A stretch of 64,000 nucleotides of DNA from an uncultured Proteiniphilum sp. (GCA_964602395.1 CAZRRC010000007.1:181-64180), one strand, 5' to 3'. Shown: positions 2,014 to 43,149, counted from the first letter of the stretch. Translations and numbers: made by a program. The notes: a model not told the origin generated them from the letters alone.

Positions 2014-2990
2014 TTTTTGGCCGTTCCTTCAATGGTTTGTATGGTTCCGTCGGCGTTGTACGTCAGTTCCACCACCTTGAGACTTCTAAGCCAGGTTTGA
2101 CCTCCGGAGGGTACGCAATCGTGGTGAAACAGGTACCATTTCCCCTTGAACTCCACAATGGAATGATGGGTTGTCCATCCCACCACCGGTGTAAGGATTA
2201 CTCCCTGGTAGGTAAAGGGGCCATAAGGATTGTCGCCCGTAGCATAGCATAGCAGATGGGTGTCGCCGGTGGAGTAGGAGAAATAGTACTTCCCGTTGTA
2301 ATAATGCATCCAGGATGCCTCAAAGAAGCGGCGTTGGGTATCGCCCGCTGTCAGTGGTTCACCTTTTTCGTCGAGGATCACCAGGTCACGCGGTTCTTCG
2401 GCGAACTCCAGCATATCTTCACGCAGTCGCACCACCTTGGGACAGAGAGCCAGTTCGTCGCCTTGGGGTAACACCGCACATTCGAGTGCTTTGTTGTTGC
2501 GGTAGCGTTGCAGTTGACCACCCCATAGTCCTCCAAAGTACATATAATGTGCTCCATCCTGGTCATGCCACAATGCCGGGTCCATGCTGTAACTCCCTTT
2601 TATTGGGTGTTCCCGTGGAATGAAAGGTCCTTCTGGCTTGTCGCTGATGGCTATGCCGATGCGGAAAATGTCGTTTTTATCCTTTAGTGGAAAATACATA
2701 TAATATTTTCCGTTTTTGTAAGCCACATCGCAGTCCCATAGCTGTCGACCAGCCCATGGTATATCTTCGGTGCGAAGCACCACACCGTGGTCGGTTACCT
2801 CTCCCTGTTCCACGTCTTCCAGAGAGAAAACATGGTAATCTTTCATGTTGAAGTGGTCGCCGTTGTCGTTCTCCGGTATGCCGCTCTCCCAGTCGTGTGA
2901 GGGGTAAATGTAAAGTCGTCCGTTAAAAATATGTACCGACGGGTCTGCCATATAATCACCTGGCACGAGGTATCTTGCTTCTTTCATCAT
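2010..2990 (-). CDS. xynB: GH43 subfamily 1 beta-xylosidase/alpha-L-arabinofuranosidase, cytoplasmic
   Basis: YMADPSVHIFNGRLYIYPSHD, LWDCDVA, YSMDPA, FFEASWMH, WTTHHSIVEF motifs; no signal peptide; GH10-GH43_1 pair next to a sugar transporter as in Bacteroides/Prevotella xylan operons. Confidence 0.92.
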   Translation of the reverse strand: MMKEARYLVPGDYMADPSVHIFNGRLYIYPSHDWESGIPENDNGDHFNMKDYHVFSLEDVEQGEVTDHGVVLRTEDIPWAGRQLWDCDVAYKNGKYYMYFPLKDKNDIFRIGIAISDKPEGPFIPREHPIKGSYSMDPALWHDQDGAHYMYFGGLWGGQLQRYRNNKALECAVLPQGDELALCPKVVRLREDMLEFAEEPRDLVILDEKGEPLTAGDTQRRFFEASWMHYYNGKYYFSYSTGDTHLLCYATGDNPYGPFTYQGVILTPVVGWTTHHSIVEFKGKWYLFHHDCVPSGGQTWLRSLKVVELTYNADGTIQTIEGTAKK

Positions 2991-3006: not shown

Positions 3007-4128
3007 TTATTTTTTTGTCAGATCAATCAATTGTTGTACGACTGGCTTGGCCTGATAGTCTCGACCGAAGAGCAGCGGATAATCGGTTCTTCCCGCTATG
3101 GGCCAGTCGTTTCGCCATGTGTCGTTATCGGTCACCCCCCATAGGGTCACCCTGCTTATTTTGTTGCTGTGCTTCAGAAACAGGCTGAAAAAGTCACTGT
3201 ACCGTTTGTTGAAAGCAGCTTCCACCTCTGCAGGCAGTCCTGCTGCATAGGGGTTCATCTTTTCCTGATATTCGGCTGTGAGCGATACCTCTGCCGTCTC
3301 TTCTGCAGGGAAGGGGAGAAGCGTGATATCCATCTCGGTGATCATCACCTTCACACCGAGTGCAGCAAATGCTTCGATGCTTTTCTCAAACTCGTTGATA
3401 TCGGGGTTGTCCATTCCCATATGCCCCTGCATACCGATGCCGTCCACGCGGATGCCTTCGGCCTGTAGCTGTTTCACCAGCTCCACCACGCTGTTGCGTC
3501 TGCCTTCCTGCGACATGCCATAGTCGTTGTAATAAAGCTCCGCTTCGGGATCTGCCTCATGAGCAAACTGAAAGGCCAGCTTGATATAGTCGTCGCCGAC
3601 GATTTCTTTGAACTTGGTATTGCGCCAGCTGCCATCGTCGAGGATCGCCTCGTTCACCACATCCCATCCGTGCACACGTCCCTTGTAGCGACCTACCACT
3701 GTCTGGATATGATTTTTCATCCGTTCAATCATCACCTCGCGTGACACATCCTCCCCCTTTTCGTTGGTGAAGAACCAGTCGGGTGCCTGTGAGTGCCAGA
3801 TTAGCGTATGACCGGTGATGTGCATGTTATTCTCTTCTCCAAACTGAACGAAATGATCCGCTTCATCGAAGAAGAAAACTCCTTCTATTGGTTGAATATG
3901 CATGCTTTTCATGCAGTTCTCCGCCACGATGGCGTTGAAATGTTGCCGGATAATTCCGATACCCAAACTATCGGTTCCGAGGTTGTGTGCGACATTGAGC
4001 GCAGTTCCGATCAGAAACTTATCCTGATAAGCCTTCTTCAGTGAAGGTGCTTCTTCGTTTTGGGGTGTGCTGCAACTCAGCAGAAGTGCCCCCGCGATTG
4101 TGGCAAGCCACGTCGTTGTTGATTTCAT
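3007..4128 (-). CDS. xynA: GH10 endo-1,4-beta-xylanase, single-domain lipoprotein
   Basis: VAENCMK, GHTLIWHSQ, WDVVNE (acid/base), YNDY, GMQGH, MITEMD (nucleophile). Lipobox LLLSC fits a start at ATG 4128; ORF-track start is 4167, and ATG 4155 is an alternative. Confidence 0.95.
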   Translation of the reverse strand: MKSTTTWLATIAGALLLSCSTPQNEEAPSLKKAYQDKFLIGTALNVAHNLGTDSLGIGIIRQHFNAIVAENCMKSMHIQPIEGVFFFDEADHFVQFGEENNMHITGHTLIWHSQAPDWFFTNEKGEDVSREVMIERMKNHIQTVVGRYKGRVHGWDVVNEAILDDGSWRNTKFKEIVGDDYIKLAFQFAHEADPEAELYYNDYGMSQEGRRNSVVELVKQLQAEGIRVDGIGMQGHMGMDNPDINEFEKSIEAFAALGVKVMITEMDITLLPFPAEETAEVSLTAEYQEKMNPYAAGLPAEVEAAFNKRYSDFFSLFLKHSNKISRVTLWGVTDNDTWRNDWPIAGRTDYPLLFGRDYQAKPVVQQLIDLTKK

Positions 4129-4147
4129 GTGATTTTTAATTACATTG

Positions 4148-5557
4148 TTATTCATCTCTTGTTTCAATTTCCAGATTGATCTGGTCGATCACATCATCCT
4201 CGAGTTCATACTTCGAGATGATAAACATGGCGAGGAGCAGCAGCATGGCAGGGATTACTGCCACGAGCCAGAGGATACCCTGCTCTACGATGGGTGTTTG
4301 TGATACGGCATTCTTTTCGTCGAATCCCACAAATGCCAGTACAAAGCCCGGCACCACACCTCCCAGGGCCATACCTGCCTTGAAGAAGATGCCGGTAAGG
4401 GCGTTCACGATGCCCGAAATGCGACGTCCGGTTTTATGCTCTCCGTAGGAGATCACTTCCGGCACGAGTGCCCACATATAACCGGTGGCGACAATCACGC
4501 CGGTCGACTTGATAAACTGGGCTACCAACACCAGCCACACCTGTGTTTTCAGGGCGGGGATGACAGAGATAGCATACAGCATGGCCATACCGAAAATGGC
4601 GACCGAGAGGAAAACATAAAACATCTGTTTCTTTCCGATGGCTCTTTTGATGGCTGGCACCATCGGCATAAAGATAAATGCCGGAATGGAACCCAGTGCC
4701 ATGAAGTAGGGTACCATATCGGGAGCGTAGACGTTGTAGATCATATAATAGGAGCCGGCAGAGTTGCCGATGGCCATCATGGCAAAGGCAGTAATGAAGA
4801 AGAAGGCCAGCACCCGCAACGGGCGATTTCGTCTGAACTCGGTCCAGAGGTCGGAGACCTTCACATCTTTGGTATCTTTCTCGTCCATCACTACCCGCTC
4901 TTTGGTCTGGGTATAGCAGAAAATAAGGAGAGCCAGTCCTGTGACCGCATAGATTGTCATGGTGATAAACCATGCATTTCCCGATTCGGGAGAGTTGATC
5001 CTGCCGTCGGGGGAGAGACTTTTCACAATAACAGGTATCCCGTAGGCTACGGCCAGCCCTCCCAGGTTTGCCAGGAACATGCGGGTGGCGGTGAGCTTGG
5101 TGATTTCGTCGGTGTCGCGTGTCAGGGAGGCATTGAGTGCACCGTAGGGTACATTGACCAGGGTATAGGCCATTGACATCCCTACGTAGGTGATGTAAGC
5201 ATAAAGTAGCGATCCGGAGAATCCGTTCCAGAAGCAGAGGATGGCAAAGCCGGTGAGGGGTAATCCACCTAGAATAAGCCATGAACGGTATTTGCCCATT
5301 TTGGGATTTTTCTTATCCACGAAGGCGCCCACGATAGGATCCCATACTACGTCGATCAGGCGTACAATGAGGAACATCACGGCAGCTGTGGCAGCCGGCA
5401 GTCCAAAAACGTTGGTATAGAAGATAAGGAGGTACATCGATACAGTTTGGTAGATCAGGTTCTGGGCCAGATCTCCCGATCCGAAGCCGATACGTTGTAC
5501 TGCAGACAGCTTGTAGAAGCCGCGTGATTCATTTTTTGTGACTGACTGTGGTTGCAT
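4148..5557 (-). CDS. xynT: GPH-family (MFS) xyloside/xylo-oligosaccharide:cation symporter
   Basis: About 12 hydrophobic segments; GFGSGDLAQNLIYQ, RLIDVVWDPIVGAFVDK, GKYRSW, NVPYGAL motifs of the MelB/XylP family. Confidence 0.88.
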   Translation of the reverse strand: MQPQSVTKNESRGFYKLSAVQRIGFGSGDLAQNLIYQTVSMYLLIFYTNVFGLPAATAAVMFLIVRLIDVVWDPIVGAFVDKKNPKMGKYRSWLILGGLPLTGFAILCFWNGFSGSLLYAYITYVGMSMAYTLVNVPYGALNASLTRDTDEITKLTATRMFLANLGGLAVAYGIPVIVKSLSPDGRINSPESGNAWFITMTIYAVTGLALLIFCYTQTKERVVMDEKDTKDVKVSDLWTEFRRNRPLRVLAFFFITAFAMMAIGNSAGSYYMIYNVYAPDMVPYFMALGSIPAFIFMPMVPAIKRAIGKKQMFYVFLSVAIFGMAMLYAISVIPALKTQVWLVLVAQFIKSTGVIVATGYMWALVPEVISYGEHKTGRRISGIVNALTGIFFKAGMALGGVVPGFVLAFVGFDEKNAVSQTPIVEQGILWLVAVIPAMLLLLAMFIISKYELEDDVIDQINLEIETRDE

Positions 5558-5575: not shown

Positions 5576-7531
5576 TTAATTGTTTGTTTTCGGTATGGTC
5601 GCCTGAAAGGGTGAGGCGGGCAGCCCTTCCCTGTTTTTCAAGTTTGCTTCAATGGGGTTATTTCCCCATGCATAACGTACTTTCACCGGATGGCTGATTC
5701 TGTCGTTCCAAAGGATGACCTTATTCTGATCGATGACAGCTTTGGCCCACACGTAACTGCCATCGGCTTCCTGTAAAGCAAAGCCCTTCAGTTCTTCTAC
5801 CGTCATCAGGTTGTTGGTTCCCTCTTTAAAAGAGAGTATGACCCGGTTGCCCTCACGGAAGACCTGCTCAAAGAGTGGTCCATTGCTCACCAGCTCCTTC
5901 TCGTCGTAGGCGATTTGGCGTGCTTGCAGTGAAAGCCGTCTACCTACCTCCTTTTTGTTGAGGGGATGGATGTCGTTCCATTCTCCGATATCGGTAGTGA
6001 CGACCAGCCCGGTGTAGGGTACTTTTTGTGTAAGTTGCAGTTGTATTTCCCTCATTTCTGCCCATTCACTTTCTGCCGGCTGTGGGGGATCTTGCATAAA
6101 GCTGGCTAGCTGCACAATCAGGAAAGGCAGCTCCTGCTGTTGCCAGAGGGTGCGCCAGTTACAAATCAACGATTCCATCAGTCCGGAATATTCATTGTAT
6201 CGACCGGTATTTGATTCACCCTGGTACCAGAGAACACCCTTGAGGCCCCAGTTCTTTAGGGGGTGAATCATGGCGTTGTAGAGACCGGTGGGTTTGTATT
6301 GAAAGAAGGTTTCCCCGGGCAACACTGGCATGGAGGTTCCTTGCTTGTATTTCCATATCCCCTCCAGGCATATCTCCTGCTTTTGCTCATCATGGAACAC
6401 TATTTTATAGGGCTTCTCCTCCACAAAGTGGGGAGTTCCGACGTAGCTGATCAGTCGCACCGTGATGTTGTTCTTTCCCGCTTTCAGCAGTCCGGCAGGA
6501 ATCTGATAGATGCGGGGAGGATACTGGTAGGCGGTGGTACCCACAAAATGACCGTTGACAAAAACCGAGTCGGCATCCACAATGCAGCCCATCCTAAGTG
6601 TGGCTGTTTTACCAGCAAGCTGTTCCGATACGGTGAAATCTTTCCTGAACCAGTGTGATCCGTTGATCGAATTCAGGCCATCGTTGCCCCAGTCTAGTGA
6701 AAAAAGATTCACATTTTTCCAGGTGGCATCGTCATGATCGGGTGCATACCAGGGGTGGTCTTTCTTTAATCCTTGATCATTCAGAAACAGCACGCTGTTC
6801 CATCGCTGTCGACGTGCACGATCAAGCTCACGAATGCTTTTCACGTGATTGTCGTCGCGGTAAATCGTTCTCTCATTGAGGTGAACCGGGAAGGCGGAAA
6901 GACCTTCTTCGCTGATCCAGGCCTCAGCAGGTGAGCCACCCACGCTGGCATTAAGCAAACCCACCGGTACGCCTGTTTTTTCATACAATTCCCGCGCGAA
7001 GAAATAGGCCACAGCCGAGAAGGAGAGTGCATTCTCGGGTGTGAGTGGTTGCCATGAGGCGGGTCGGATCTCATCGAGGGGATGATGAAAATTGTAGGTA
7101 AGGGGCACCTTCAGGTGGCGGATCATCGGGTTGCTGTACTGCTCCACCTCTGTCCGGTAGAGGTCCATGACCCGGCTTACGGGCAGTTCCATGTTCGACT
7201 GTCCGGAGCAGAGCCAGACGTCACCAATTAGGATGTTGCTGACCAGGATATCGTTTACCGACATCTGAAAGGGACCACCTGCCTGCTGTGGGGGCAGCAC
7301 GGTTTCCCAGTTTCCGCGGGTATCGGCTGTTGTGCTGAATGTTTGATTCAGAAACTGAATGGTGATGGTCTCACCCGGGTCGGCACTTCCCCAGAGGGTG
7401 ATCTCCCGGTCGCGTTGTAACACCATGCCGTCGGACACCAGTTGTGGCAATGTCACTTTTGCTTCGGAGGGCTGTACAGCAAGCAGTGCCAGAAGAAGGA
7501 AAGTCAGCGTTGTATGTTGTCTCTTCATCAT
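5576..7531 (-). CDS. CE20-type / sialate-O-acetylesterase-like SGNH esterase with inserted beta-sandwich (putative acetyl-xylan/xyloglucan esterase)
   Basis: Signal peptide; SDGMVLQRD; GDVWLCSGQSNME (Ser nucleophile); WYQGESN; DIHP (Asp-x-His). The SGNH domain is split by a jelly-roll insert (HWFRKDF...DADSVFVNG), the CE20 architecture. Confidence 0.85.
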   Translation of the reverse strand: MMKRQHTTLTFLLLALLAVQPSEAKVTLPQLVSDGMVLQRDREITLWGSADPGETITIQFLNQTFSTTADTRGNWETVLPPQQAGGPFQMSVNDILVSNILIGDVWLCSGQSNMELPVSRVMDLYRTEVEQYSNPMIRHLKVPLTYNFHHPLDEIRPASWQPLTPENALSFSAVAYFFARELYEKTGVPVGLLNASVGGSPAEAWISEEGLSAFPVHLNERTIYRDDNHVKSIRELDRARRQRWNSVLFLNDQGLKKDHPWYAPDHDDATWKNVNLFSLDWGNDGLNSINGSHWFRKDFTVSEQLAGKTATLRMGCIVDADSVFVNGHFVGTTAYQYPPRIYQIPAGLLKAGKNNITVRLISYVGTPHFVEEKPYKIVFHDEQKQEICLEGIWKYKQGTSMPVLPGETFFQYKPTGLYNAMIHPLKNWGLKGVLWYQGESNTGRYNEYSGLMESLICNWRTLWQQQELPFLIVQLASFMQDPPQPAESEWAEMREIQLQLTQKVPYTGLVVTTDIGEWNDIHPLNKKEVGRRLSLQARQIAYDEKELVSNGPLFEQVFREGNRVILSFKEGTNNLMTVEELKGFALQEADGSYVWAKAVIDQNKVILWNDRISHPVKVRYAWGNNPIEANLKNREGLPASPFQATIPKTNN

Positions 7532-7869
7532 TTTTTTGTTTCGCTTTGCAGGGTGCCCAGATAACTCTGCCTTAACCCGAAGAAATGGATCATGATCTTT
7601 TGCAGGTCGTTGCCGGCAATCACAGCACCTGCTCCTGTAAGAGTGGAAATCAGTGTAGAAGCGAAGCCGGTTGCTTTTTTCGTATCGCGCTTCTGGTTTT
7701 GTATGGTATGGAGTATCTCGCTTTCATCTACCGGATCAAAGAGAAGAGGGTGGGCGCGTTCCTGGTTTATCCAAGTGAAACCACCCTCCTTCCTTTGCAA
7801 CACGAAATATTCGAAAGCATATAGCAATGAGGATATCAAAAATCCGATAACAAATAATGAAATTCGCAT
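7528..7869 (-). pseudogene. GH115 alpha-glucuronidase remnant with a large in-frame internal deletion
   Basis: 113 aa: signal peptide, then GH115-like N-terminus (FVLQ..GFTWI..PLLFDPVDESEILHTIQNQKRDTKKATG..AVIAG) joined directly to LQKIMIHFFGLRQSYLG, which resembles the GH115 C-terminal consensus LQK(I/L)xIDxGGL(K/R)xSYLGP. Position upstream of esterase-MFS-GH10-GH43_1-GH67 fits a GH115 slot. Confidence 0.75.
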
Positions 7870-8058: not shown

Positions 8059-8158
8059 GCCAGTCAATTCATTGTGCATAATCTGTGTTGGGGGGGGGTG
8101 ATTGATTCTTACCAGTCGATCCATTGCATATAATCAGTGTTGGCAAAAGGATGAATCT
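8059..8158 (-). repeat. Degenerate tandem copy (about 52 bp offset) of the 3' end of the CE15 fusion gene
   Basis: Gene end CAT CCT TTT GCC AAC ACT GAT TAT ATG CAA TGG ATC GAC TGG TAA is followed by CAC C8 AAC ACA GAT TAT GCA CAA TGA ATT GAC TGG CAA (NTDYMQWIDW versus NTDYAQ*IDW). Confidence 0.75.
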
Positions 8159-10694
8159 CTACGTTCGTCTCTGTTTCGCAATCTCCCAGCAGGAATTTAT
8201 CGATAAAAGCCTCAACTTCCGGTCGTTGTTGTTCGGGGAGGATGCAATGTCCGTGGTTCCCAACGATGGAGAATCCGAACCTATCGGCAATATCGAATGT
8301 TTCCCAGACCCGTTTGGCGGCTTTGCACGATACATAGCCCGACTCGTCGGCAAGCCATTTATAGTCGGGGTTTCCCAGGCAGAGCAATGCACGTGGTGCA
8401 ATCATCGACAAGAGTTCGTGGTGATCGAAGGGCAACTTGTTGACATGGTCTGAAAATTGAAACATCTCCTCCATAAACCATACATGGCTGGTTCTGGCCA
8501 GTGTCTCCACTTCACCCAGTGTTTCGGAAACACGCCATGCTGCCGCTCCGCCACCACCCGATTCCTGTGCGATGGTGAGGGCGATGCGTTCGTCGAATGC
8601 TGCCGCATAGATTGCCATTTTACCGGCAAAGGAACAGCCGGTGATGGCCAGGTGTTGCAGATCGATGGGTAGTTTGTCGGCTACGAGTTCCAGCCCGTCG
8701 ATCAGGCGGCTCACCCCCCACGACCAGGCGCTGTAGGCTCCCATATGGATTAATTCGGGATAGAGTCGATTGATTGGTTCTTCACCTCTTTTTTGCTGCC
8801 AGGCCATCACCTGGGGGAAGTTAAAAGCAATTTGTGCGATATTGCGGGAAGAGAAGAGGTCGGGTGGAAGGCTTCCAGCACCAAAACCAATTCCGATTAC
8901 AGCAGGGAAAGGACCCTCGCCCTGTGGCAGAATTACATGGGAGGTGAGGGTCAGCGTCTCCCCATTCACCGTGATCTGCACGCGTAAGGTGTCATTTTGG
9001 TAGTCGGCAGTGATGGTGTCGGGTCGTTCCGGCTTTTTGCCGATTTCGTAATGTTGGATTTCCGCACCGATCTCCATTCTTCTGCGTGCCCAGTCCCCGA
9101 AGTGGGTGGATCGTCCACTGCCGTCGGACCAGGCAAAGGGATCGGGTAGTTTTTCTATTACGGGTAATTCCTCCAGTGAGGGGAGAAAGAACTCAAAAGG
9201 GGATACCGAACTTTCGGTAGAATAGACCAGAGGTATATCCGACGTTTGGTGGTGAGTGGCAGGAGGAACTTCGAGTATGATTCTTTTATAACTTGTCAGA
9301 TTGGGAATTCCGCAATCGGTTATTTCACAAACAATATGGATACTTTTCCCCGCCATGTCTGAGGGGATCTTTATTGTTGCCAGTGGGGTATTGGCATGCT
9401 CTATCTCTATCCCTTCCGAATAGGTGCCTGCCTCGGGCAACAAAAGCCATTGATAAACCAATTGATCACCGTCGGGATCATATGAGGCAGAGGCGTCCAA
9501 AACAATTTCCTCTCCTTGTTGCGGCGTAATGGATAATATTTCCTTGTCGTTCTTTCCATTGACAACCACTACCGGATTTCGGTTACCCTTGCCCTCTTTG
9601 GCCCAGTCCATGCGGGCAGCAAAATTATTGAAGGTGGCAGGATAAAAGTAAGCTTCGTACTTTTCGGATGTTTCTTTTGCCTTTCCTGTATGGTTTGTAA
9701 AGCAAAGGGTTACTTGATCCATTCCCAATCCCCACTCAAAGTATCCTCCCCAGCCAATCTGTCCCGGCTTTCCCGGATCATTCAGACCATTTGGCATGAG
9801 ATGTAGGAAGGACGGTGTATCGCCCTCAACCCCATATTTGTTCTTGGGGTAGATCATCCCGAGGTGACCATGATTTTGAATATGGGTTGCATATTCATCC
9901 CATTTCCCGGCACCAATTCCATTCTGTGAAAGCCATGCACTCTCATCCCAGATAAAGAGGAGTTCTTTTTCGAATTCACGGCGCATCCATTGGTGAGAGC
10001 TGAACGGATAGTTGGTGTGTCGTTCTCCCCAGGGAACATCCTGGTCGGTAATGGTATAGACGCGCAGTTTATTTAAGAAGTCATCTAGTTCCTTTTCCGT
10101 CCGTTCCTGTTTCACACGCCAAAGGGCCTGAGCCAGTGTGTTTCCCCCTCCCCAGACAGCAACCCAAATAGGGCGTTCGTCGGCTTCATCCACCAGCTGA
10201 ATGATAAAATCACTTCCTTGTGAATGGTTGTTTTTTCCAATCTCTCCGTATCCCAAATTCAAACTTCCCGGCATGACCCGCTTCCGTAAATAGCCTGCAC
10301 TGGGCCAGTAGCCTATTTGCTGCTGTCCGTTTTCCACTTCCGGTGCAAGAAAGCTCTTTTGTTCCGATCGTTTCTTCAGGTTGGGCAGGTCTTTTTCATA
10401 TGCATTGATCGTCCGGTGTAGAATCTCCATCCAGGAAAGGGGATAAGTCCGTCCGCTGCTGTTCCAGCCTCCGGAAGCAATCAACGCTTCAATCTCAAAC
10501 AGATCCGCATGCACAAGCAGGCGTATCATGGATTGCATGTCATCAGGCTCCACATCTCCTGGAGCAATATCAGTTAAAATAACGATCCGGGGTTTAAGCG
10601 GTACAGAGGTGGAATCTTTTGGGTTACTTGCTGCATAGGATACCTGTGTCATGGTAACCAGGCACAAAATAGACAAAAAATATTTTGTAATCAT
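8109..10694 (-). CDS. Secreted fusion: DUF1593 (Sde182 nucleoside-hydrolase-like) + Ig-like domain + CE15 glucuronoyl-esterase-family domain
   Basis: N-terminal RIVILTDI..EPDDMQSMIRLL, EGDTPSFL, GWGG (DUF1593); LDASASYDPDGDQL Ig-like module; C-terminal LPDPF, AWSWGVSRLIDGL, TGCSFAGK, QESGGGG, LPFDHHEL, HGHC (CE15). The signal peptide fits ATG 10694; the ORF-track start 10754 is a TTG. Confidence 0.85.
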   Translation of the reverse strand: MITKYFLSILCLVTMTQVSYAASNPKDSTSVPLKPRIVILTDIAPGDVEPDDMQSMIRLLVHADLFEIEALIASGGWNSSGRTYPLSWMEILHRTINAYEKDLPNLKKRSEQKSFLAPEVENGQQQIGYWPSAGYLRKRVMPGSLNLGYGEIGKNNHSQGSDFIIQLVDEADERPIWVAVWGGGNTLAQALWRVKQERTEKELDDFLNKLRVYTITDQDVPWGERHTNYPFSSHQWMRREFEKELLFIWDESAWLSQNGIGAGKWDEYATHIQNHGHLGMIYPKNKYGVEGDTPSFLHLMPNGLNDPGKPGQIGWGGYFEWGLGMDQVTLCFTNHTGKAKETSEKYEAYFYPATFNNFAARMDWAKEGKGNRNPVVVVNGKNDKEILSITPQQGEEIVLDASASYDPDGDQLVYQWLLLPEAGTYSEGIEIEHANTPLATIKIPSDMAGKSIHIVCEITDCGIPNLTSYKRIILEVPPATHHQTSDIPLVYSTESSVSPFEFFLPSLEELPVIEKLPDPFAWSDGSGRSTHFGDWARRRMEIGAEIQHYEIGKKPERPDTITADYQNDTLRVQITVNGETLTLTSHVILPQGEGPFPAVIGIGFGAGSLPPDLFSSRNIAQIAFNFPQVMAWQQKRGEEPINRLYPELIHMGAYSAWSWGVSRLIDGLELVADKLPIDLQHLAITGCSFAGKMAIYAAAFDERIALTIAQESGGGGAAAWRVSETLGEVETLARTSHVWFMEEMFQFSDHVNKLPFDHHELLSMIAPRALLCLGNPDYKWLADESGYVSCKAAKRVWETFDIADRFGFSIVGNHGHCILPEQQRPEVEAFIDKFLLGDCETETNVEIHPFANTDYMQWIDW

Positions 10695-10766
10695 ATCGGC
10701 ATGATGTTTGATATTCATATTGTAAATGTAGTGGCTATTTTTATAAAGCAGCAAACCGTGGCTGTA

Positions 10767-13517
10767 TTATTCAGATACCAGCATCAAGTTGCTCTCTTTC
10801 AGCCCCGGCGAAGTAGCCTTGATTGTGATGCTACCCGGTTTGCCTGCTTCACTTCTGACTATCACCAGGCATTGTCCGCTAAATGTCTCTCTTATGGAGG
10901 AAGGGAAAGGAGTCATGTCGGCCGGATTGCCGTTGTCGGTCGCCACAATCTCACCAGCTCCCTCAATTGTAAAATGAACGGGATAGACAGCATCTGGCAC
11001 AAGGAGTCCATTACGGTCGGTTACTTTTACGGTCACGAAAGCGAGATCATTTCCATCGTCAGCAATTGTTTTCCTGTCGGTTTCCAGTAGTAGTGACTCG
11101 GCTACATCCGTAGTTTGCACCACGTCCTCCGCCCATTTTTCACCATTTTTGTAGGCGATTGCCTTCAGTTCACCCGGTTCGTAACGGATGTCATCCCACC
11201 GGAGCCGGTATTCGAATTCACCCTTTTTCTTTCGTCCGAGCGACCTGCCATTCAGGAACAGTTCAGCCTCATCGCCGGAGGTAAAGAGATGTACCGGTGT
11301 GATCTGACCACTCCGGCAGGGCCAGTTCCAGTGGGGCAGGATATGCACCATGGGCAGCTCGGGCCGCCAGCGCGACTGGTAGAGATAGAAACGGTCTTTT
11401 TTGAATCCTGCCAGGTCGATGATGCCGCAGTAGGAGCTCCGTGCTGAATAGTAGGGGGTGGGCTCTCCCAGATGATCCCATCCCGTCCAGACGAATCCAC
11501 CGGCCACAAAGGGATGTTTGTCCTGCATCATGAATACTTTGTCGGGCGACGAGCCAAAGTCTACCGCATAGAGTTCGTAGGCGCTGACCTGTGCATTTTT
11601 TGCATCTCCTCCCTGGCCCTCCCGCACCGGAGAACTCATTTTCTCCGTAACAGGGAAAAGGTAGATCCCCCTGCTACTGAAGGAGGAAGCCACCTCGCTA
11701 CCAATAATTACCTTTTTGGGGAAGGTAGTGTGAAAATAATCATATTGGGGTGTCGTGCGGATCCGATCAGTTCCCTCAAATTCAGGCTCCTGTCGGATAC
11801 CCTCTCCCTGGTAGTTGAGACCGATCACATCGGGAACACGGGGGAAAGGCATATCCGGCTTGGCGTAGTTCAAGGAGAGGGTCGTGGGGCGTGTGGAGTC
11901 TTCCTCTTTGATAATCTCGTTTAGCCATTCTGCTATTGCTGCACCTTCTTCGTCGGTGTATTGTTCACCCACTTCGTTGCCATAGCTCCACATGATGATC
12001 GAGGGATGGTTTCTGTCGCGGCGTACGAAGGAGCGGGTGTCGGCTTCAGCCCATTCTGTAAAAATCAGGTGAAAGTCGTGCGGTGTCTTTTTCCTTTCCC
12101 AGGAATCGAAGATTTCGTTTACTACCAGGAATCCCATTCGGTCGGTCAGCTCCAGCAACTCCGGTGCAGGTGGGTTGTGGGCCATGCGGATGGCATTGCA
12201 TCCCATCTCCTGCAATAATTCAAGTTGACGTTCAGCGGCACGCCGGTTGAAGGCTGCACCCAGTGCACCCAGATCGTGATGCTGGTTCACCCCTTGGAGC
12301 CTGATGACTTCACCGTTCACCAGCACACCCCGTTGCGGATCTAATTGCAGATCACGGATGCCAAAGTTGGTTTCATAACGGTCGATTGTCCTGCCATTTT
12401 GCTGCAAGGTGGTGATGGCCTGGTAAAGGTGAGGTGTCTGGGAGGGCTTTGGCCCCCACAGTCTTGGGCTTCTTATCACTGTGGTGTGTTTGCTTTTACT
12501 GCTCTCCCCTGCATCAAGTGAAATTGTCGAAGTAGGAAAACGGGCAATGCTTTTTTTCCCTTTTATACCCAGGCTGTCTAGCTCATAGATCTCTGTTTCG
12601 ATCACGACTGTCACATCCGATTCCGATTCGTTGTCTACGTTTACTTCCAGGTCGACCGTTGCTGAGGATGCGGAGATCTCTCTCGCCGTCACAAAAGTTC
12701 CCCACTGACCCATGTGCACCGGGTGGGTTTTGATCAGCCAAACATTGCGGTAGATTCCAGCACCTGGGTACCAGCGGGAGGAGTGGTTGGGGTTGTCGAG
12801 GCGGATAGCCAGCTGGTTCTCTTTCCCATAGAGAATATAGGGTGTCAGATCGAGCCGCCAGGAATTATAACCATAGGGCCAACCGCCCACCAGGGTGCCG
12901 TTGAGCCAAACCATGGCATAGGACATGGCGCCCTCCACGTCAAGAAAAATGGAGCGTCCTTCGTCTGTAGCAGGAATGGAAATTTTCTTTCTGTACCAGG
13001 CCACACCCTGTACAGGGAGACGACCCATTCCACCACCCACTTCCGGATTGTCTCCTTCATAAAATGGACCTTTGATGGCCCAGTCGTGAGGCAAATCGAC
13101 CTTCTCCCAATTAGAGTCATCGAAATCATGTTGTACGAAAGGAAAATCTTTTCCAGGCGCTTCACCTTCGGGGCGGAGATAATGTTTTTCAGAATCTTTG
13201 ATAAAATGATTTGCCGTGGGCAGGATCCATGGCTTTAATACCGCTTCGGAAGAGCCCCTTTCAACCGCTTCTGTAGGTTTAGCATCTGCTATCAGATACT
13301 CCCGGGCCTCTTCAATGGCAGGCCGTACATCATAGTTGAGTGGGTCAATCTTTTCCGTTATATCGTATCTGTAAAAAGACCAACTATCGTTGAGAGAGAT
13401 CTTCTCCCGATCGATGGATCTTTTTTGTGGAATGAGGGAACAGGATCCAGTCAATACAGCAATAACAATTGTGAGCAGCGATCGCATTGTTATTCGGGCG
13501 AAAGAATGGGATGTCAT
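10767..13517 (-). CDS. GH2 glycoside hydrolase (beta-galactosidase-like), lipoprotein
   Basis: LPHDW, WYRK, FEG-like VEGAMSY, GVNQHHDLG, IRMAHNPP, WSYGNE (acid/base), IGSE (nucleophile), VWTGWDHLGEPTP; C-terminal DUF4982/Ig domains; lipobox LTGSC. Confidence 0.9.
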   Translation of the reverse strand: MTSHSFARITMRSLLTIVIAVLTGSCSLIPQKRSIDREKISLNDSWSFYRYDITEKIDPLNYDVRPAIEEAREYLIADAKPTEAVERGSSEAVLKPWILPTANHFIKDSEKHYLRPEGEAPGKDFPFVQHDFDDSNWEKVDLPHDWAIKGPFYEGDNPEVGGGMGRLPVQGVAWYRKKISIPATDEGRSIFLDVEGAMSYAMVWLNGTLVGGWPYGYNSWRLDLTPYILYGKENQLAIRLDNPNHSSRWYPGAGIYRNVWLIKTHPVHMGQWGTFVTAREISASSATVDLEVNVDNESESDVTVVIETEIYELDSLGIKGKKSIARFPTSTISLDAGESSKSKHTTVIRSPRLWGPKPSQTPHLYQAITTLQQNGRTIDRYETNFGIRDLQLDPQRGVLVNGEVIRLQGVNQHHDLGALGAAFNRRAAERQLELLQEMGCNAIRMAHNPPAPELLELTDRMGFLVVNEIFDSWERKKTPHDFHLIFTEWAEADTRSFVRRDRNHPSIIMWSYGNEVGEQYTDEEGAAIAEWLNEIIKEEDSTRPTTLSLNYAKPDMPFPRVPDVIGLNYQGEGIRQEPEFEGTDRIRTTPQYDYFHTTFPKKVIIGSEVASSFSSRGIYLFPVTEKMSSPVREGQGGDAKNAQVSAYELYAVDFGSSPDKVFMMQDKHPFVAGGFVWTGWDHLGEPTPYYSARSSYCGIIDLAGFKKDRFYLYQSRWRPELPMVHILPHWNWPCRSGQITPVHLFTSGDEAELFLNGRSLGRKKKGEFEYRLRWDDIRYEPGELKAIAYKNGEKWAEDVVQTTDVAESLLLETDRKTIADDGNDLAFVTVKVTDRNGLLVPDAVYPVHFTIEGAGEIVATDNGNPADMTPFPSSIRETFSGQCLVIVRSEAGKPGSITIKATSPGLKESNLMLVSE

Positions 13518-15136
13518 GATATTTTCAACAACAGGGAAATTTCATTTGGCATCTCCTCTTCCGGCAGTTCAACCATGAGTCCCTCGCTGTTTCTTTTAAA
13601 TTGAAGCACTTTATCACTTCCAACCAGCGACACTGAGTTGATCGCTCTTTCCATCAATGGATTTCCTTCCGACAGGGATCGAATAACCACCTTATTGTCT
13701 TCGGGGTGCGCCAGTATATGGGCATAGAGGTTGTCACCCTTGACCACAAAACGAATATCCGCCGAGGTGTAGGGAGCGTGTTTTCCTTCGTTAAAGCCCT
13801 GAGCTTGCAGAGGGTTGCTTGCTTCCGCCACGGGCCCTTCGCCAAAAATCTTCCAAGGACGTGTGCCGTAAACCCCTTCGCTGTTTACCGCCATCCAGGT
13901 TGCAATGTCTTCCAGTATCTTCCGTTCCTTGTCGTCTATCGTCCCGTCTCCTCTCTGCGGCACACTCAACAACAGATTGCCGTTTTTACTGATGATGTCA
14001 ATCAACATATGGACGACTGTTTTAGCCGATTTGTAACGGTCGTTGTCGTAATATGACTGGTTGTAATGCCACGATCCCAGGCAAGTGCATGTCTGCCATG
14101 GCTTCTCCTGTATCTGGTCGGGAACCCCTTTCTCCACATCCCAGACCAATGCATTCTTTTGTTCGTCGGACAAGATTTTAGCAAATACAACGGCTTTATT
14201 TTTACCTTTGTTCTCGCTCAAGCTTTTATTGTAAAAGTGAGCTACGGTACGCAAACCGGCATCACTCACAGGCCACAAAGGCATCGCTGTATCGTCGTAA
14301 TAAACCAGGTCGGGATTATACTGGTTGATCATATCCACCGTACGGTCAAAAAAATTCTGACTATATTCTTCCGAAGGAGGAAAAGCTCCATTTCCCCAGG
14401 CCCACTGGCCATGGATCGCGCTGTTGTCATGGCTCTCTTCACTCAACGGGTGGTCTTGTGCGTATAATTCCTGTGGATCATATCCGTTCCACCATTTCCC
14501 CCGGCCATCTTCTTTCGTCATTTTTCCGTCGTAGGGCACACCAGATAAGGGCCCTTCCTTGTCGGTGCGTTGTGCGGGTTCATACCAGCTCCAAGCATGT
14601 GCTGAATGAATGCTCACGCCAAAATACATCCCATATTTTCGTGCTACTTTTTCCCAGCCACCGACAATATCTTTTTCAGGTCCCATGTTTACTGCGTTCC
14701 ACTTGTGATGCCTGCTGTTCCAGTTATCAAAGTTGTCGTGATGATTGCCCAGGGAGAAAAAGTAGCGTGCTCCCGCGCGGTGGTACAGTTCCATTAATTC
14801 TTCGGGATTCCATTTGTCGGCCTTCCAGAGGTTGATTACATCCTTGAATCCAAATTCCGACGGATGCCCATAGTTTTCTACATGCCAGCGATAGATACGA
14901 CTCCCCTCCATATACATTTCCCGGGCGTACCAATCTCCTTGTCCGGGTTGACACTGTGGCCCCCAATGGGACCAGATTCCAAATTTGACATCCCGGAACC
15001 ATTCAGGTGCTTCTCCATACTGGGCAAGTGATTCCCATGTAGGTTCATAGATCCCTTCCATCATTTGCTCATGCTTTGGAGCACATGAAGTCAGGATTAA
15101 CCCTGATAATAAAATTGTAAAAAAACTGTTTTTCAT
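13514..15136 (-). CDS. GH29 alpha-L-fucosidase-family enzyme (possibly alpha-L-galactosidase), lipoprotein
   Basis: PEWFRDVKFGIWSHWG, HHDNFDNW, LVYYDD (nucleophile), WQTCT, DIISKNGNLLLSV; lipobox ILTSC. Confidence 0.9.
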   Translation of the reverse strand: MKNSFFTILLSGLILTSCAPKHEQMMEGIYEPTWESLAQYGEAPEWFRDVKFGIWSHWGPQCQPGQGDWYAREMYMEGSRIYRWHVENYGHPSEFGFKDVINLWKADKWNPEELMELYHRAGARYFFSLGNHHDNFDNWNSRHHKWNAVNMGPEKDIVGGWEKVARKYGMYFGVSIHSAHAWSWYEPAQRTDKEGPLSGVPYDGKMTKEDGRGKWWNGYDPQELYAQDHPLSEESHDNSAIHGQWAWGNGAFPPSEEYSQNFFDRTVDMINQYNPDLVYYDDTAMPLWPVSDAGLRTVAHFYNKSLSENKGKNKAVVFAKILSDEQKNALVWDVEKGVPDQIQEKPWQTCTCLGSWHYNQSYYDNDRYKSAKTVVHMLIDIISKNGNLLLSVPQRGDGTIDDKERKILEDIATWMAVNSEGVYGTRPWKIFGEGPVAEASNPLQAQGFNEGKHAPYTSADIRFVVKGDNLYAHILAHPEDNKVVIRSLSEGNPLMERAINSVSLVGSDKVLQFKRNSEGLMVELPEEEMPNEISLLLKIS

Positions 15137-15226: not shown

Positions 15227-17707
15227 CTAAAACTTAATCACGATTTTCTGTCCTGTATAATCGACTACCCTGTCATACTTCTCAACTTTTTCCATTCCGT
15301 TCGCTCTGTTTTTTTCGACACGAAGAAGATGAAACTTTCTTTGTGTCAGCATACCTGGAAACGAACCATTGCGGCCACCGATCGTCAGCACTTTTTTTGC
15401 ATCATTCCAGGTAAACGTAATGGTTGAATAGATTCCTTTCTCGTAGTTGTAGTTGTCGTTTTCATCTTCATACAGGGTGAACTCCCCATCCGCACCTTCG
15501 TAAATCCTTATTTCCAGGTTGTCCCAGCTCTTCTCGGTGGCATATTGTACCTCAGGACCTATGGGAAGGATGGTTCCGGCTTTTATGTATAAGGGAATGA
15601 CATCAATGCTTGTTTCTTTTGAAATTTCCTTTCCACCTTCAAATCTTTCGTTCGTCCAGAAATCATACCATTCTGAACCTGTTGGAAGATAGAGGTCCGA
15701 GCTCTTTTTTGCAGTAAAGTCTACTTGCGCATCTTTTTTTATCCCTTCTCCATTTGTTCGTGTCCACCCTTCTTCTATGCTGGCATCTACAATTTTCTCG
15801 GGAGTATACTGTGCTTCTACTACTGGAGCAACCAGTATGGAATTGCCAAACATGAACTGGTGTTTAATGTCCCAGACATGCTTATCCTCTGCAAAATCCA
15901 TCGCCAGTGCGCGCATAAAACTTGATTGCTTATTGGTTACTTCCCATGCGGTAGAATAAATATAAGGCAACAGTGCATAACGTAAACGGATTGTACGTTC
16001 GATGGCATCATATATGGGCTCTCCTTTTTCCCCAAAATGATAAATCTCCCGTGAGAGATCAGTACCGTGAGAACGCATCATGGGGTTAAAAGCACCGAAT
16101 TGCATCCAGCGAACATACAATTCCTGAAACATTGGATTTCTGGATGCCGATCCGTCGTTCCATGACTTGTTGTAAGCACCTGCAAAAAAACCGCCAATAT
16201 CGCTGTTCCAGTGCGGGATGCCACACATGGAGAAATTAAGCCCTGCAGGAATTTGATTTCGAAAATTCTCCCACGACGTAAAGACGTCGCCCGACCATAC
16301 ATTGGCACCATAGCGTTGCTGACCGGCAAATCCCGATCGTGTGAGGATAAACACTCTCTTGTCGGAGGTAAGTGCCCGCTGATTATCGTAGACACCTCCT
16401 ACTGTTACCAGGGGATAGGCATTTCTCACCTTTCTGAAAGAGCCCATGGCAGTAGGTGTATCCATATCTGCCGGCTTGAAGCTTAAATGGTCCGGCTCTG
16501 TGGAGTCCATCCACCATCCGTCGATACCCAGTTTAAATAAGCCACTGTTGAGGTGATTCCAGTATATATCCCTTGCTTTAGGGTTGAAGGCATCATACAC
16601 GCGAACCCCCGAAGGATAATCCATGTTGGGTGGCCAGCTGGTGAGACCCGATTCGGGCCATGTGCTGAAATTGTATAACGCTCCAATTTCATCCAGTTTT
16701 CGGTACTGCTTTGTGGCAGGACCAAATGAAGACCAGATAGAAATGATCATGTGCGCATGCATATCATGGATCTCGTTTACCATCGCCTGCGGGTTGGGAA
16801 ACTCTTCGTTCAGAAATTCCATCGCATTCCACAAGTAGTTGCTGCCCCAGTATTGCCAGTCCTGAATGATCCCATCAAGCGGCACACCTAGCTCGCGGTA
16901 TTTTTTGACCACACCCACAGTTTCATTCTGACTTTTATAACGCTCTTTACTTTGCCAAAACCCATAGGTCCACAAAGGAAACATAGGAACCTGCCCGGTG
17001 AGGTCACGCATCTCCGCAATCACGCCATCGGCATCGCCTCCATACATAAAATAATAGTCGATGCATTCACCCACTTCAGAAAGAAAAGATGTTTCACCTG
17101 GATTGTCTGTAAAGGTGGTGGGCGAATAGTTGTCCCAGAAAAGGCCGTAACCTTTCACTGACTGGAAAAAAGTCACAAAATCCCAAGTGTTGTTTTGGAC
17201 CATCTGTACTTCCTGGTTGCGCTGAGACATCTTACCATTTTGAAGAATACCGAGACCGTAGATGGTTTCGTCCGGATCCAGCAGATAGGACTGCTTCACG
17301 CTATGGGTTTTTACTCCGGCATCGTCAAAGTCAGTGAAATTAGCACTGGCCTCTTTTTCAGTCAGGAGTAACTGCCCCTTTGTGTTTTTGAAAGTCACTT
17401 TTCCGCTTTGCAGATTCAAAGCTACTTCTACGCGTTTATTCTTTAACAGGAGTTCATCGCCTCTCTGTCTCGTTTTAAAAGTTACTTTTTCAGGTGTTTT
17501 GACAACGGACAAACTCTCTTTTTTTATATTTTTCCCTTCGGGTGATTTCACCACCCGCACAATGGATGGCCCGTAGAACTGGATCTCAATATCCATCGAT
17601 TTAACCTGAGCGCTCACTCCCTTTTCGGTATTTTTATACGATTGAGCAGAGCCTGGAGTTGAAAATAACATCAAAGCGCAAAGCGCGACAGCAATTTTTT
17701 TCATCAT
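15227..17707 (-). CDS. GH31 alpha-xylosidase-like glycoside hydrolase
   Basis: PMFPLWTYGFWQSKERY, DGIIQDWQYW, WWMDSTEP (nucleophile), WSGDV, WNSDIGGF (acid/base), C-terminal DUF5110. The signal peptide fits ATG 17707; the ORF-track start 17791 overlaps the neighbouring gene. Confidence 0.92.
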   Translation of the reverse strand: MMKKIAVALCALMLFSTPGSAQSYKNTEKGVSAQVKSMDIEIQFYGPSIVRVVKSPEGKNIKKESLSVVKTPEKVTFKTRQRGDELLLKNKRVEVALNLQSGKVTFKNTKGQLLLTEKEASANFTDFDDAGVKTHSVKQSYLLDPDETIYGLGILQNGKMSQRNQEVQMVQNNTWDFVTFFQSVKGYGLFWDNYSPTTFTDNPGETSFLSEVGECIDYYFMYGGDADGVIAEMRDLTGQVPMFPLWTYGFWQSKERYKSQNETVGVVKKYRELGVPLDGIIQDWQYWGSNYLWNAMEFLNEEFPNPQAMVNEIHDMHAHMIISIWSSFGPATKQYRKLDEIGALYNFSTWPESGLTSWPPNMDYPSGVRVYDAFNPKARDIYWNHLNSGLFKLGIDGWWMDSTEPDHLSFKPADMDTPTAMGSFRKVRNAYPLVTVGGVYDNQRALTSDKRVFILTRSGFAGQQRYGANVWSGDVFTSWENFRNQIPAGLNFSMCGIPHWNSDIGGFFAGAYNKSWNDGSASRNPMFQELYVRWMQFGAFNPMMRSHGTDLSREIYHFGEKGEPIYDAIERTIRLRYALLPYIYSTAWEVTNKQSSFMRALAMDFAEDKHVWDIKHQFMFGNSILVAPVVEAQYTPEKIVDASIEEGWTRTNGEGIKKDAQVDFTAKKSSDLYLPTGSEWYDFWTNERFEGGKEISKETSIDVIPLYIKAGTILPIGPEVQYATEKSWDNLEIRIYEGADGEFTLYEDENDNYNYEKGIYSTITFTWNDAKKVLTIGGRNGSFPGMLTQRKFHLLRVEKNRANGMEKVEKYDRVVDYTGQKIVIKF

Positions 17708-17769
17708 TTTATGGTATCTGTTTTTCAATGTTTGGTCTTTTATCAGTTCATTGCATCCAAGTAAAGGGT

Positions 17770-43113: not shown

Positions 43114-43149
43114 ACTATTAAAAGCGGCTTTGTGCAAACTATACAGAGT

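Follow-up and report, generated by a model that had tools for sequence, protein, structure and literature searches.

In a 64,000-nucleotide stretch of DNA from an uncultured Proteiniphilum sp. (GCA_964602395.1 CAZRRC010000007.1:181-64180; hereafter the window), a single minus-strand gene encodes an 861-aa protein in which a DUF1593 unit is joined to a CE15 glucuronoyl esterase, within a polysaccharide utilisation locus (PUL) for complex xylan. The reading we favour, which we hold to be evenly poised, is that this fusion is secreted, probably to the periplasm, and serves that PUL as an accessory protein combining two enzymes, with DUF1593 as a proposed hydrolase. The CE15 half would most likely free the (4-O-methyl)glucuronic acid of imported xylo-oligosaccharides from its alcohol esters, and removal of the ester would let the GH67 encoded downstream act. 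The DUF1593 half, taken as catalytic and not as a binding module, is probably a Ca2+-dependent glycosidase-like hydrolase, which would remove a small sugar decoration from plant-wall oligosaccharides. Its acidic cluster (D42, D51/D52, Q218-D219 and E290-G-D292) would hold two sugar hydroxyls and a water. This chemistry is modelled on the nucleoside-hydrolase mechanism, and the sugar that best fits it would be 1,2-trans-linked and offer a chelatable diol. What draws attention here is the uncharacterised partner family; multidomain CE15 enzymes are already known. The features of the fusion are as follows:

8109..10694, minus strand: whole gene for the 861-aa DUF1593-CE15 fusion; stop codon 8109-8111, ATG at 10694
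10626..10694, minus strand: predicted signal peptide, residues 1-23 (MITKYFLSILCLVTMTQVSYA, with the cut before AS), read by eye and from the model
9738..10589, minus strand: nucleoside-hydrolase-like domain PF07632 (Sde182_NH-like), residues 36-319; Pfam E 1.2e-73, predicted local distance difference test (pLDDT) 93
10539..10574, minus strand: acidic motif T41-D42...E49-P50-D51-D52, invariant in 67 homologues of type 1, the fusion's own clade (at least 55-60% identity)
9267..9509, minus strand: Sde0182_C beta-sandwich PF21027, residues 396-476; Pfam E 6.1e-25, PKD/cadherin-like Foldseek matches
9240..9266, minus strand: fusion linker, residues 477-485, within ...EVPPATHHQTSD-IPLVY; model pLDDT ~30
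8112..9239, minus strand: CE15 domain, residues 486-861, with PF22244 (GCE_fung) core 572-799; Pfam E 6.5e-70
8619..8639, minus strand: nucleophile motif G-C-S688-F-A-G-K, by alignment to 8TRX
8562..8564, minus strand: catalytic acid Glu711 in AQESGGGG, by alignment to PrCE15
8244..8249, minus strand: catalytic His816 and Cys817 in HGHC, by alignment to PrCE15

The minus-strand open reading frame (ORF) runs uninterrupted over 8109..10754, with a TTG at 10754 as its upstream limit and a further in-frame ATG at 10718; read from the ATG at 10694, the protein has 861 aa, as does P0001, its called counterpart in public assemblies. An earlier note, made from the sequence alone, had described one secreted polypeptide carrying a DUF1593 domain with an intact acidic motif, an immunoglobulin (Ig)-like spacer and a full CE15 domain, and its coordinates proved right (motif LTDI...EPDD, residues 40-52, at 10539-10577; Ig-like domain at 9267-9509; CE15 at 8112-9239). 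The single polypeptide is borne out by one intact 861-aa ORF with three Pfam domains, PF07632 being matched over its full profile length (1-268/268, 248 bits) and PF21027 over 1-83/83 (88 bits). Secretion is predicted from an N-terminal hydrophobic helix in the full-length model (residues 2-21 helical, residues 23-28 at pLDDT <50) and an SYA/AS cleavage site read by eye; because the signal peptide carries no canonical lipobox, the protein is probably soluble in the periplasm. The Ig-like domain is present as described, but not in the role of a spacer: the PF21027 beta-sandwich is integral to the DUF1593 unit and occurs in every Sde_0182-type unit (all 120 homologues listed). The link to CE15 is a stretch of ~10 residues (VPPATHHQTSD, about residues 476-486). 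In the full-length AlphaFold2 model (predicted template modelling score, pTM, 0.57), this linker has low confidence and the domain packing is not confident, and the model is therefore silent on whether the two active sites face each other.

The C-terminal half is securely assigned, on its sequence, as a complete glucuronoyl esterase of the fungal-type or CE15-B group. The PF22244 score of 236 bits is far above the cut-off (27), and a PDB sequence search matched 22 CE15 structures, the best being PrCE15 of Piromyces rhizinflata (8TRX; residues 485-859, E 4.8e-117), with Cip2 (3PIC) at E 4.2e-66. Ser688, Glu711 and His816 align with PrCE15 Ser226, Glu249 and His355, and C687 and C817 are the counterparts of PrCE15 Cys225 and Cys356, the CE15-B disulfide pair, such that the catalytic triad and the Cys-Cys pair of a full domain are all present. 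GCS688FAGK, Glu711 and His816-Cys817 are invariant in the eight fusion proteins aligned (8/8). An active-site disulfide between a Cys before the Ser and a Cys after the His has been described for PrCE15 and FsCE15, and PrCE15, the closest solved relative, hydrolyses benzyl glucuronate. PrCE15, Cip2 and StGE2 (4G4G) share with the fusion the alpha/beta-hydrolase fold, the Ser-His-Glu triad and the Cys-Cys bridge; the 8TRX, 3PIC and 4G4G chains, however, are the CE15 domain alone, whereas here it is the C-terminal half of a bacterial fusion known from sequence, adding a bacterial member to the fungal-type CE15-B group. BeCE15A-Rex8A (CE15-GH8, 7NN3) and R. flavefaciens CesA (CE3-CE15, 8TSE) resemble the fusion in combining CE15 with a second xylan accessory activity in or near xylan loci, but they differ in that the CE15 partner in the window protein is a domain without known function.

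For this partner, neither the literature searched nor the PDB holds a characterised DUF1593, and the term "DUF1593" was not found in the literature searched. The gene goes unmentioned in the Segatella copri RNA-seq paper and its supplement, and in the P. copri enzyme and B. intestinalis arabinoxylan papers. In the PDB sequence search, fusion residues 37-476 match only 2YHG, a fragment of Sde_0182 (E 2e-71). An AlphaFold2 model of residues 24-480 is confident (pLDDT 93.3, pTM 0.92) and reproduces the two-domain fold of 2YHG, a nucleoside-hydrolase-like domain with a packed beta-sandwich; Foldseek pairs the model with 2YHG at E 2.3e-48 (TM 0.82/0.91, 34% identity), its sole strong match among PDB entries up to April 2026. 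Next among alpha/beta folds comes the pyrimidine nucleosidase YeiK (3MKN, E 5.8e-5, TMt 0.51), a resemblance at the level of the fold, in agreement with the original description of an inosine-uridine nucleoside-hydrolase-like fold with no assigned substrate.

Invariant in this half in 67 type-1 sequences are T41-D42, E49-P-D51-D52, W181-G-G-x-N185-T186, T216-D-Q-D219, S232-S-H234, W249-D-E251 and E290-G-D292-T-P, while TD, DD, WGG, QD and EGDxP are near-invariant across 61 diverse DUF1593 members. The TD...PDD motif may be the counterpart of the nucleoside-hydrolase DXDXXXDD Ca2+/ribose motif, and by their position at the first strand and helix of the model the conserved acidic motifs would match the residues with which nucleoside hydrolases bind Ca2+ and ribose. 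Inosine-uridine nucleoside hydrolases (YeiK/RihB, 3MKN) likewise carry an acidic N-terminal motif after the first strand, but they differ from DUF1593 in motif spacing (TD-x8-PDD in DUF1593) and in DUF1593's extra beta-sandwich. Pfam gave no match of PF01156 (IU_nuc_hydro) in the fusion protein, whose motif reads T-D-x8-P-D-D, and a profile comparison of E. coli RihC with the DUF1593 alignment (hhalign) found no similarity (probability 0.1). Because that comparison failed, the residue-level mapping onto nucleoside hydrolases stays tentative.

The closest structural precedent, Sde_0182 of Saccharophagus degradans (Cbm2C; CBM2/PSL/Y94/PSL/UNK577), is the founding member of PF07632 and PF21027. 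It contains the same two-domain unit as the fusion N-terminus and shares its TD...PDD, WGGxNT, QD and EGDTP motifs, but it differs in having an N-terminal CBM2 and a Y94 module and no esterase. Two type-1 motifs, TITD and IWDES, are missing from the conserved positions in Sde_0182, whose specificity may therefore differ. According to the genome paper, Sde_0182 was detected by mass spectrometry in supernatants of xylan-grown S. degradans. The review PMC8910321, summarising the 2011 structure, gives it a nucleoside-hydrolase fold with Ca2+ retained and a beta-sandwich that fills the nucleoside-hydrolase dimer interface; it reports that nucleosidase activity is absent and that a furanose-interacting role has been proposed.

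The domains that accompany DUF1593 elsewhere argue for a catalytic role. DUF1593 forms a large family (5,372 clusters at 50% identity, E <= 1e-3), and 61 multidomain representatives carry PKD-type domains (19), type IX secretion system (T9SS) tails (9), CBM6 (7), CBM35 (7 and 3), Big_7 (6), LamG (3), GDSL esterase (3), GH140 (2), malectin (2), CBM2 (2), GH10 (1) and sulfatase (1). Among closer homologues, DUF1593 is joined to GH43 (P0026, P0028), to PL1 or to another DUF1593. CBM6, CBM35, CBM2, malectin and T9SS tails are found on DUF1593 proteins that have no other catalytic domain, and because carbohydrate-binding modules (CBMs) are attached there without any other catalytic domain, we take DUF1593 itself to be the enzyme. 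These CBM-only proteins, together with the fusions to GH43, PL1, GDSL, GH140 and GH10, make the proposal of an unclassified family of carbohydrate-active enzymes (CAZymes) a reasonable one. We know of no classified glycoside hydrolase (GH) family that uses the nucleoside-hydrolase fold. A broader reading, to which we give rather less than an even chance, is that DUF1593 constitutes a new Ca2+-dependent GH family on this fold, whose paralogues remove 1,2-trans sugars with a chelatable diol; within it, the type-1 clade would remove an unrecognised decoration common to xylan, xyloglucan and pectin oligosaccharides.

Several points weigh against an enzymatic accessory role. No DUF1593 has a shown activity, and Sde_0182 is described as inactive on nucleosides in PMC8910321. 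The correspondence with nucleoside hydrolases is one of motif and secondary structure only, the RihC profile comparison being null, and the type-1 WDES motif is not kept in Sde_0182. How the domains are arranged is not confidently predicted in the full-length model (pTM 0.57). In the CE15 half of the fusion, the catalytic Ser is followed by Phe; PrCE15, which is active, has Tyr at this position, and many CE15s have Arg there. About half of the type-1 loci lie without a recognised CAZyme neighbour, and many copies in gut Bacteroidaceae stand among housekeeping genes.

A serious rival, though in our estimate an unlikely one, is that DUF1593 is a non-catalytic, Ca2+-dependent sugar-binding module that holds the substrate for its CE15, GH43 and PL1 partners. 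It would account for a Sde_0182 that is inactive on nucleosides yet, according to PMC8910321, has Ca2+ retained and is said to retain ribofuranose binding, for the CBM-like way in which DUF1593 is appended to various catalytic domains, and for the many standalone copies with an N-terminus that is lipoprotein-like by consensus, as in surface glycan-binding proteins (SGBPs). Against this, most members are standalone or accompanied by CBM, PKD or T9SS only, which leaves DUF1593 as the sole candidate catalytic part; the unit spans ~450 aa with a deep invariant acidic cluster and an invariant His234; and tandem copies and multiple paralogues per locus are what an enzyme family would look like. The choice matters, as DUF1593 has had a crystal structure since 2011 and no function, and is common among glycan degraders from gut, rumen and environmental sources, with the xylan loci of Segatella copri as one example. 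The CE15, GH43, PL1, GDSL and GH140 fusions and the recurrent neighbours point to a short list of candidate substrates. Should DUF1593 prove to be an enzyme, it would represent a glycosidase mechanism on a fold that no classified GH family is known to use and could explain residual undigested hemicellulose or pectin decorations; if it only binds, the finding shrinks to one more multidomain CE15.

A survey of genomic settings, with one genome scanned per species, returned 80 loci. By clustering, the type-1 clade spans Bacteroidales, Prolixibacteraceae, Planctomycetota, Verrucomicrobiota and Lentisphaerota. The commonest immediate neighbours (134 distinct proteins) are GH43 (13, nine of them with CBM6), AraC-type regulators (10) and GH2 (6), with CE15 and GH140 at two each. 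At least one recognised CAZyme lies within 10 kb in at least 43/80 loci and at least two in 26/80 or more, and Sus or hybrid two-component system (HTCS) genes are near DUF1593 in at least 17/80, all three counts being lower bounds. Five arrangements recur: (a) Prevotella and S. copri xylan PULs with the order SusC-SusD-SGBP-GH10-GH43/CBM6-DUF1593-SASA-HTCS; (b) xyloglucan-like PULs with SGBP_B_XBD, BACON-GH5, two GH43-CBM6 genes and (GH43-)DUF1593; (c) GH31-(GH29)-GH2-DUF1593 with or without CE15, which includes the window as well as HTCS-GH31-GH2-DUF1593 in Phocaeicola; (d) clustered DUF1593 paralogues, four to six per block and some fused to GDSL or PL1, with apiose-type catabolic genes; and (e) DUF1593 paired with AraC in a housekeeping-gene setting in Phocaeicola and Bacteroides. 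Because these five arrangements extend over several glycan contexts, type-1 DUF1593 is not specific to xylan or to CE15; it is a widely used accessory module. Since the clade serves xylan, xyloglucan-like and pectin/apiose-like loci, the decoration removed by the favoured hydrolase would not be specific to xylan-lignin junctions.

The same survey bears on the suggestion, made in the earlier note, that the target of DUF1593 is a glycosidic or aryl-glycoside bond of xylan or of lignin-carbohydrate complexes. If DUF1593 cleaved a bond that is particular to xylan-lignin complexes, for example a phenyl or aryl glycoside, it would work at the same junction as CE15, and this would be consistent with CE15 being fused or adjacent in several lineages and with the secretion of Sde_0182 on xylan. 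Nucleoside hydrolases, moreover, cleave glycosidic bonds to aromatic leaving groups, which we count in its favour. However, CE15 is beside or fused to type-1 DUF1593 in only 6/80 loci (L012-L017); the same clade is found in xyloglucan-like PULs, pectin/apiose-like loci and orphan AraC units; Prevotella fusions at 55% identity lie outside PULs; and a periplasmic enzyme would meet imported oligosaccharides only. The type-1 clade being neither CE15- nor xylan-specific, the suggestion is weak, and we regard it as quite improbable.

How the two halves came together is indicated by their relatives. The nearest ones are unfused: DUF1593 and CE15 are adjacent but separate genes in L003, L004, L016 and L017 (78-86% identity in the DUF1593 half), with a short DUF1593 paralogue between them in L004 and L016. 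The CE15 gene of L017 encodes a signal peptide of its own, and EIPLVY, where its mature part starts, falls at the fusion junction of the window protein. In L003 (CP070276.1, Dysgonomonadaceae bacterium zrk40), a CE15 gene at 11545-12672, 83.5% identical to the fusion C-terminal half, lies directly downstream of DUF1593 in another frame and has no entry in the genome's gene table. Because the nearest relatives are unfused and adjacent, the two modules were once neighbouring genes, joined in this lineage by loss of the stop codon, the spacer and the CE15 signal peptide. On such an origin, the fusion would reflect co-expression and co-localisation on a shared oligosaccharide pool, and not necessarily action on the same bond.

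A search for the same architecture found fused homologues in three clades: at 80% identity (P0002, and L012 in a metagenome-assembled genome (MAG) of Bacteroidales UBA4912), at 52-56% in Prevotella spp. (P0003-P0006, where one cluster stands for 786 sequences) and at ~50% (P0013, P0016). The Prevotella fusions (~55%) sit among housekeeping genes, outside PULs. Judged from these sequences, the fusion is evolutionarily young, lineage-limited and derived. Because DUF1593 and CE15 are fused in three clades and adjacent in the nearest relatives, their link goes beyond chance, and fusion is a classic indication of a functional link. That a sequencing or assembly error joined two genes is effectively refuted and the least credible explanation by far: although the nearest relatives do have two separate genes here, an identical 861-aa protein, whose cluster comprises 30 sequences, occurs on three independent contigs or assemblies derived from separate samples, the 80%-identical fusion in MAG L012 and the further fused clades are in single frames, and the CE15 signal peptide is wholly missing at the junction, which one frameshift error would not delete.

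The window locus itself is a xylan PUL, as originally described, with SusC/D pairs, HTCS, GH10, GH43, GH67, GH8, GH5 and esterases co-oriented; every large ORF in the window lies on the minus strand. Its content is two SusC/D pairs, SGBP, HTCS, GH10 (two), GH5, GH8, GH43 (six), GH3, GH95, GH97 (two), GH31 (two), GH127, GH29, GH2, a CE1-like esterase, SASA-type esterases (two), a major facilitator superfamily (MFS) transporter and GH67. The gene order begins with the two SusC/D pairs, SGBP, GH10-CBM4_9, GH5, GH43, GH8, SASA esterase, GH31, GH97, GH95, GH3 and HTCS; a second block holds GH43, the CE1-like esterase, GH43-CBM6, GH97, GH127, GH43-CBM6, GH31, GH29 and GH2; and a third consists of the fusion gene, a 113-aa ORF, SASA esterase, MFS, GH10, GH43 and then GH67. 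The genes around the fusion are:

15227-17791, minus strand: GH31 alpha-xylosidase, BoGH31A-like (E 1.6e-164), upstream
13514-15136, minus strand: GH29, resembling alpha-L-fucosidases or alpha-L-galactosidases, upstream
10767-13517, minus strand: GH2, beta-galactosidase-like, directly upstream of the fusion
7528-7869, minus strand: 113-aa ORF between the fusion and the SASA esterase, with a 4-nt overlap with the esterase start
5576-7531, minus strand: SASA-type esterase, downstream
4148-5557, minus strand: MFS transporter, downstream
3007-4167, minus strand: GH10, downstream
2010-2990, minus strand: GH43, downstream
1-2013, minus strand: GH67 alpha-glucuronidase, cut by the window edge; 97.5% identical to the GH67 of L006

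Co-transcription of the fusion gene with its neighbours is plausible, given a shared strand and a 72-nt upstream gap. Scans for sigma-70 promoters and terminators returned no more sites than shuffled sequence, the consensus not being applicable to Bacteroidota. The GH2-then-DUF1593 pair recurs in other genomes. Two genes of the PUL are duplicated, GH31 (15227-17791 and 40486-43137) and GH97 (21649-23595 and 38554-40473), and the GH31 in the fusion subcluster is closest to alpha-xylosidases of the xyloglucan type (BoGH31A, XyGUL-type). Because GH31 and GH97 are duplicated and one GH31 is BoGH31A-like, the locus may combine xylan and xyloglucan-type side-chain tool kits.

A separate lead comes from the paralogue blocks of arrangement (d). 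One locus (L091, JBFYPG010000037.1, 154-22417) has a DUF1593 paralogue block with two GH140 apiosidases, GH88/105 and GH28, and two more (L087, CAWALO010000022.1, 38-22256; L010, CAZVOA010000002.1, 1-22886) have DUF1593 blocks with sugar-catabolic genes: a split transketolase, a fucose-isomerase-like isomerase, a ribose-type binding protein, DUF2291, an ABC transporter and an FGGY kinase. Arrangement (d) is reminiscent of an apiogalacturonan or RG-II-type system, and its catabolic genes match the E. coli SE15 D-apiose cluster in composition and in transporter order (substrate-binding protein, DUF2291, ABC, permease, with a kinase and a split transketolase), at 36-47% identity. With NCBIfam, which has no apiose-specific models, the L010 kinase scores GlpK-like and the isomerase gives just a weak score for sulfoquinovose isomerase; the one name that its relatives carry is "L-fucose isomerase-like". 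The search made found no literature on such DUF1593/apiogalacturonan-like loci. All three have the appearance of apiogalacturonan or apiose utilisation loci that have yet to be described. Beta-D-apiofuranose, the nearest stereochemical analogue of beta-D-ribofuranose, shares its C1-C3 configuration, including a cis-2,3-diol, and would suit a Ca2+-diol site inherited from nucleoside hydrolases. GH140, the beta-D-apiofuranosidase family (PF13204, with BT1012 as a member), co-occurs with DUF1593 paralogues in the L091 PUL and is fused to DUF1593 in 2/61 multidomain representatives, but it is unrelated to DUF1593 in fold and sequence; its place beside DUF1593 in L091 suggests roles that are complementary, not identical. 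Pfam found no PF13204 match in the fusion protein, and no GH140 is among the window genes scanned. We know of no apiose in xylans. These observations make apiose a lead for certain types of paralogue; we do not propose it as what the fusion's DUF1593 acts on.

Other settings of the family add further variety. A divergently transcribed AraC-type regulator precedes type-1 DUF1593 in L050, L046, L043, L051, L038 and L021 (~position 10000), in surroundings that include Dus, PAP2, epimerase, MutS-like and RNase R genes (Phocaeicola, Bacteroides, Parabacteroides), which suggests a stand-alone unit under small-molecule regulation. A second, divergent DUF1593 often accompanies the type-1 copy (P0039, P0044, P0049, P0045; L004, L016), either tandem-fused (800-900 aa) or as a short neighbour of ~330-350 aa with the nucleoside-hydrolase-like domain only. 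This short paralogue lies at 11461-12510 in L004 and 11437-12486 in L016, and is not in the window. Proteins of 800-830 aa that we had considered as DUF1593 joined to a new domain proved to be tandem DUF1593-DUF1593.

Three minor points concern the downstream end of the locus. An ORF at 286-1440 on the plus strand was rejected as a gene, being an opposite-strand shadow of GH67. A near-identical metagenome contig (L006, 98-99% identical) has ~100 nt at 17073-17174 where the window has ~526 nt at 3094-3620, inside GH10, and no GH10 gene is called in it, reflecting either strain-level gene decay or an assembly difference. The 113-aa ORF (7528-7869) has no Pfam match, and it is called as a gene in L006 too (12824-13165).

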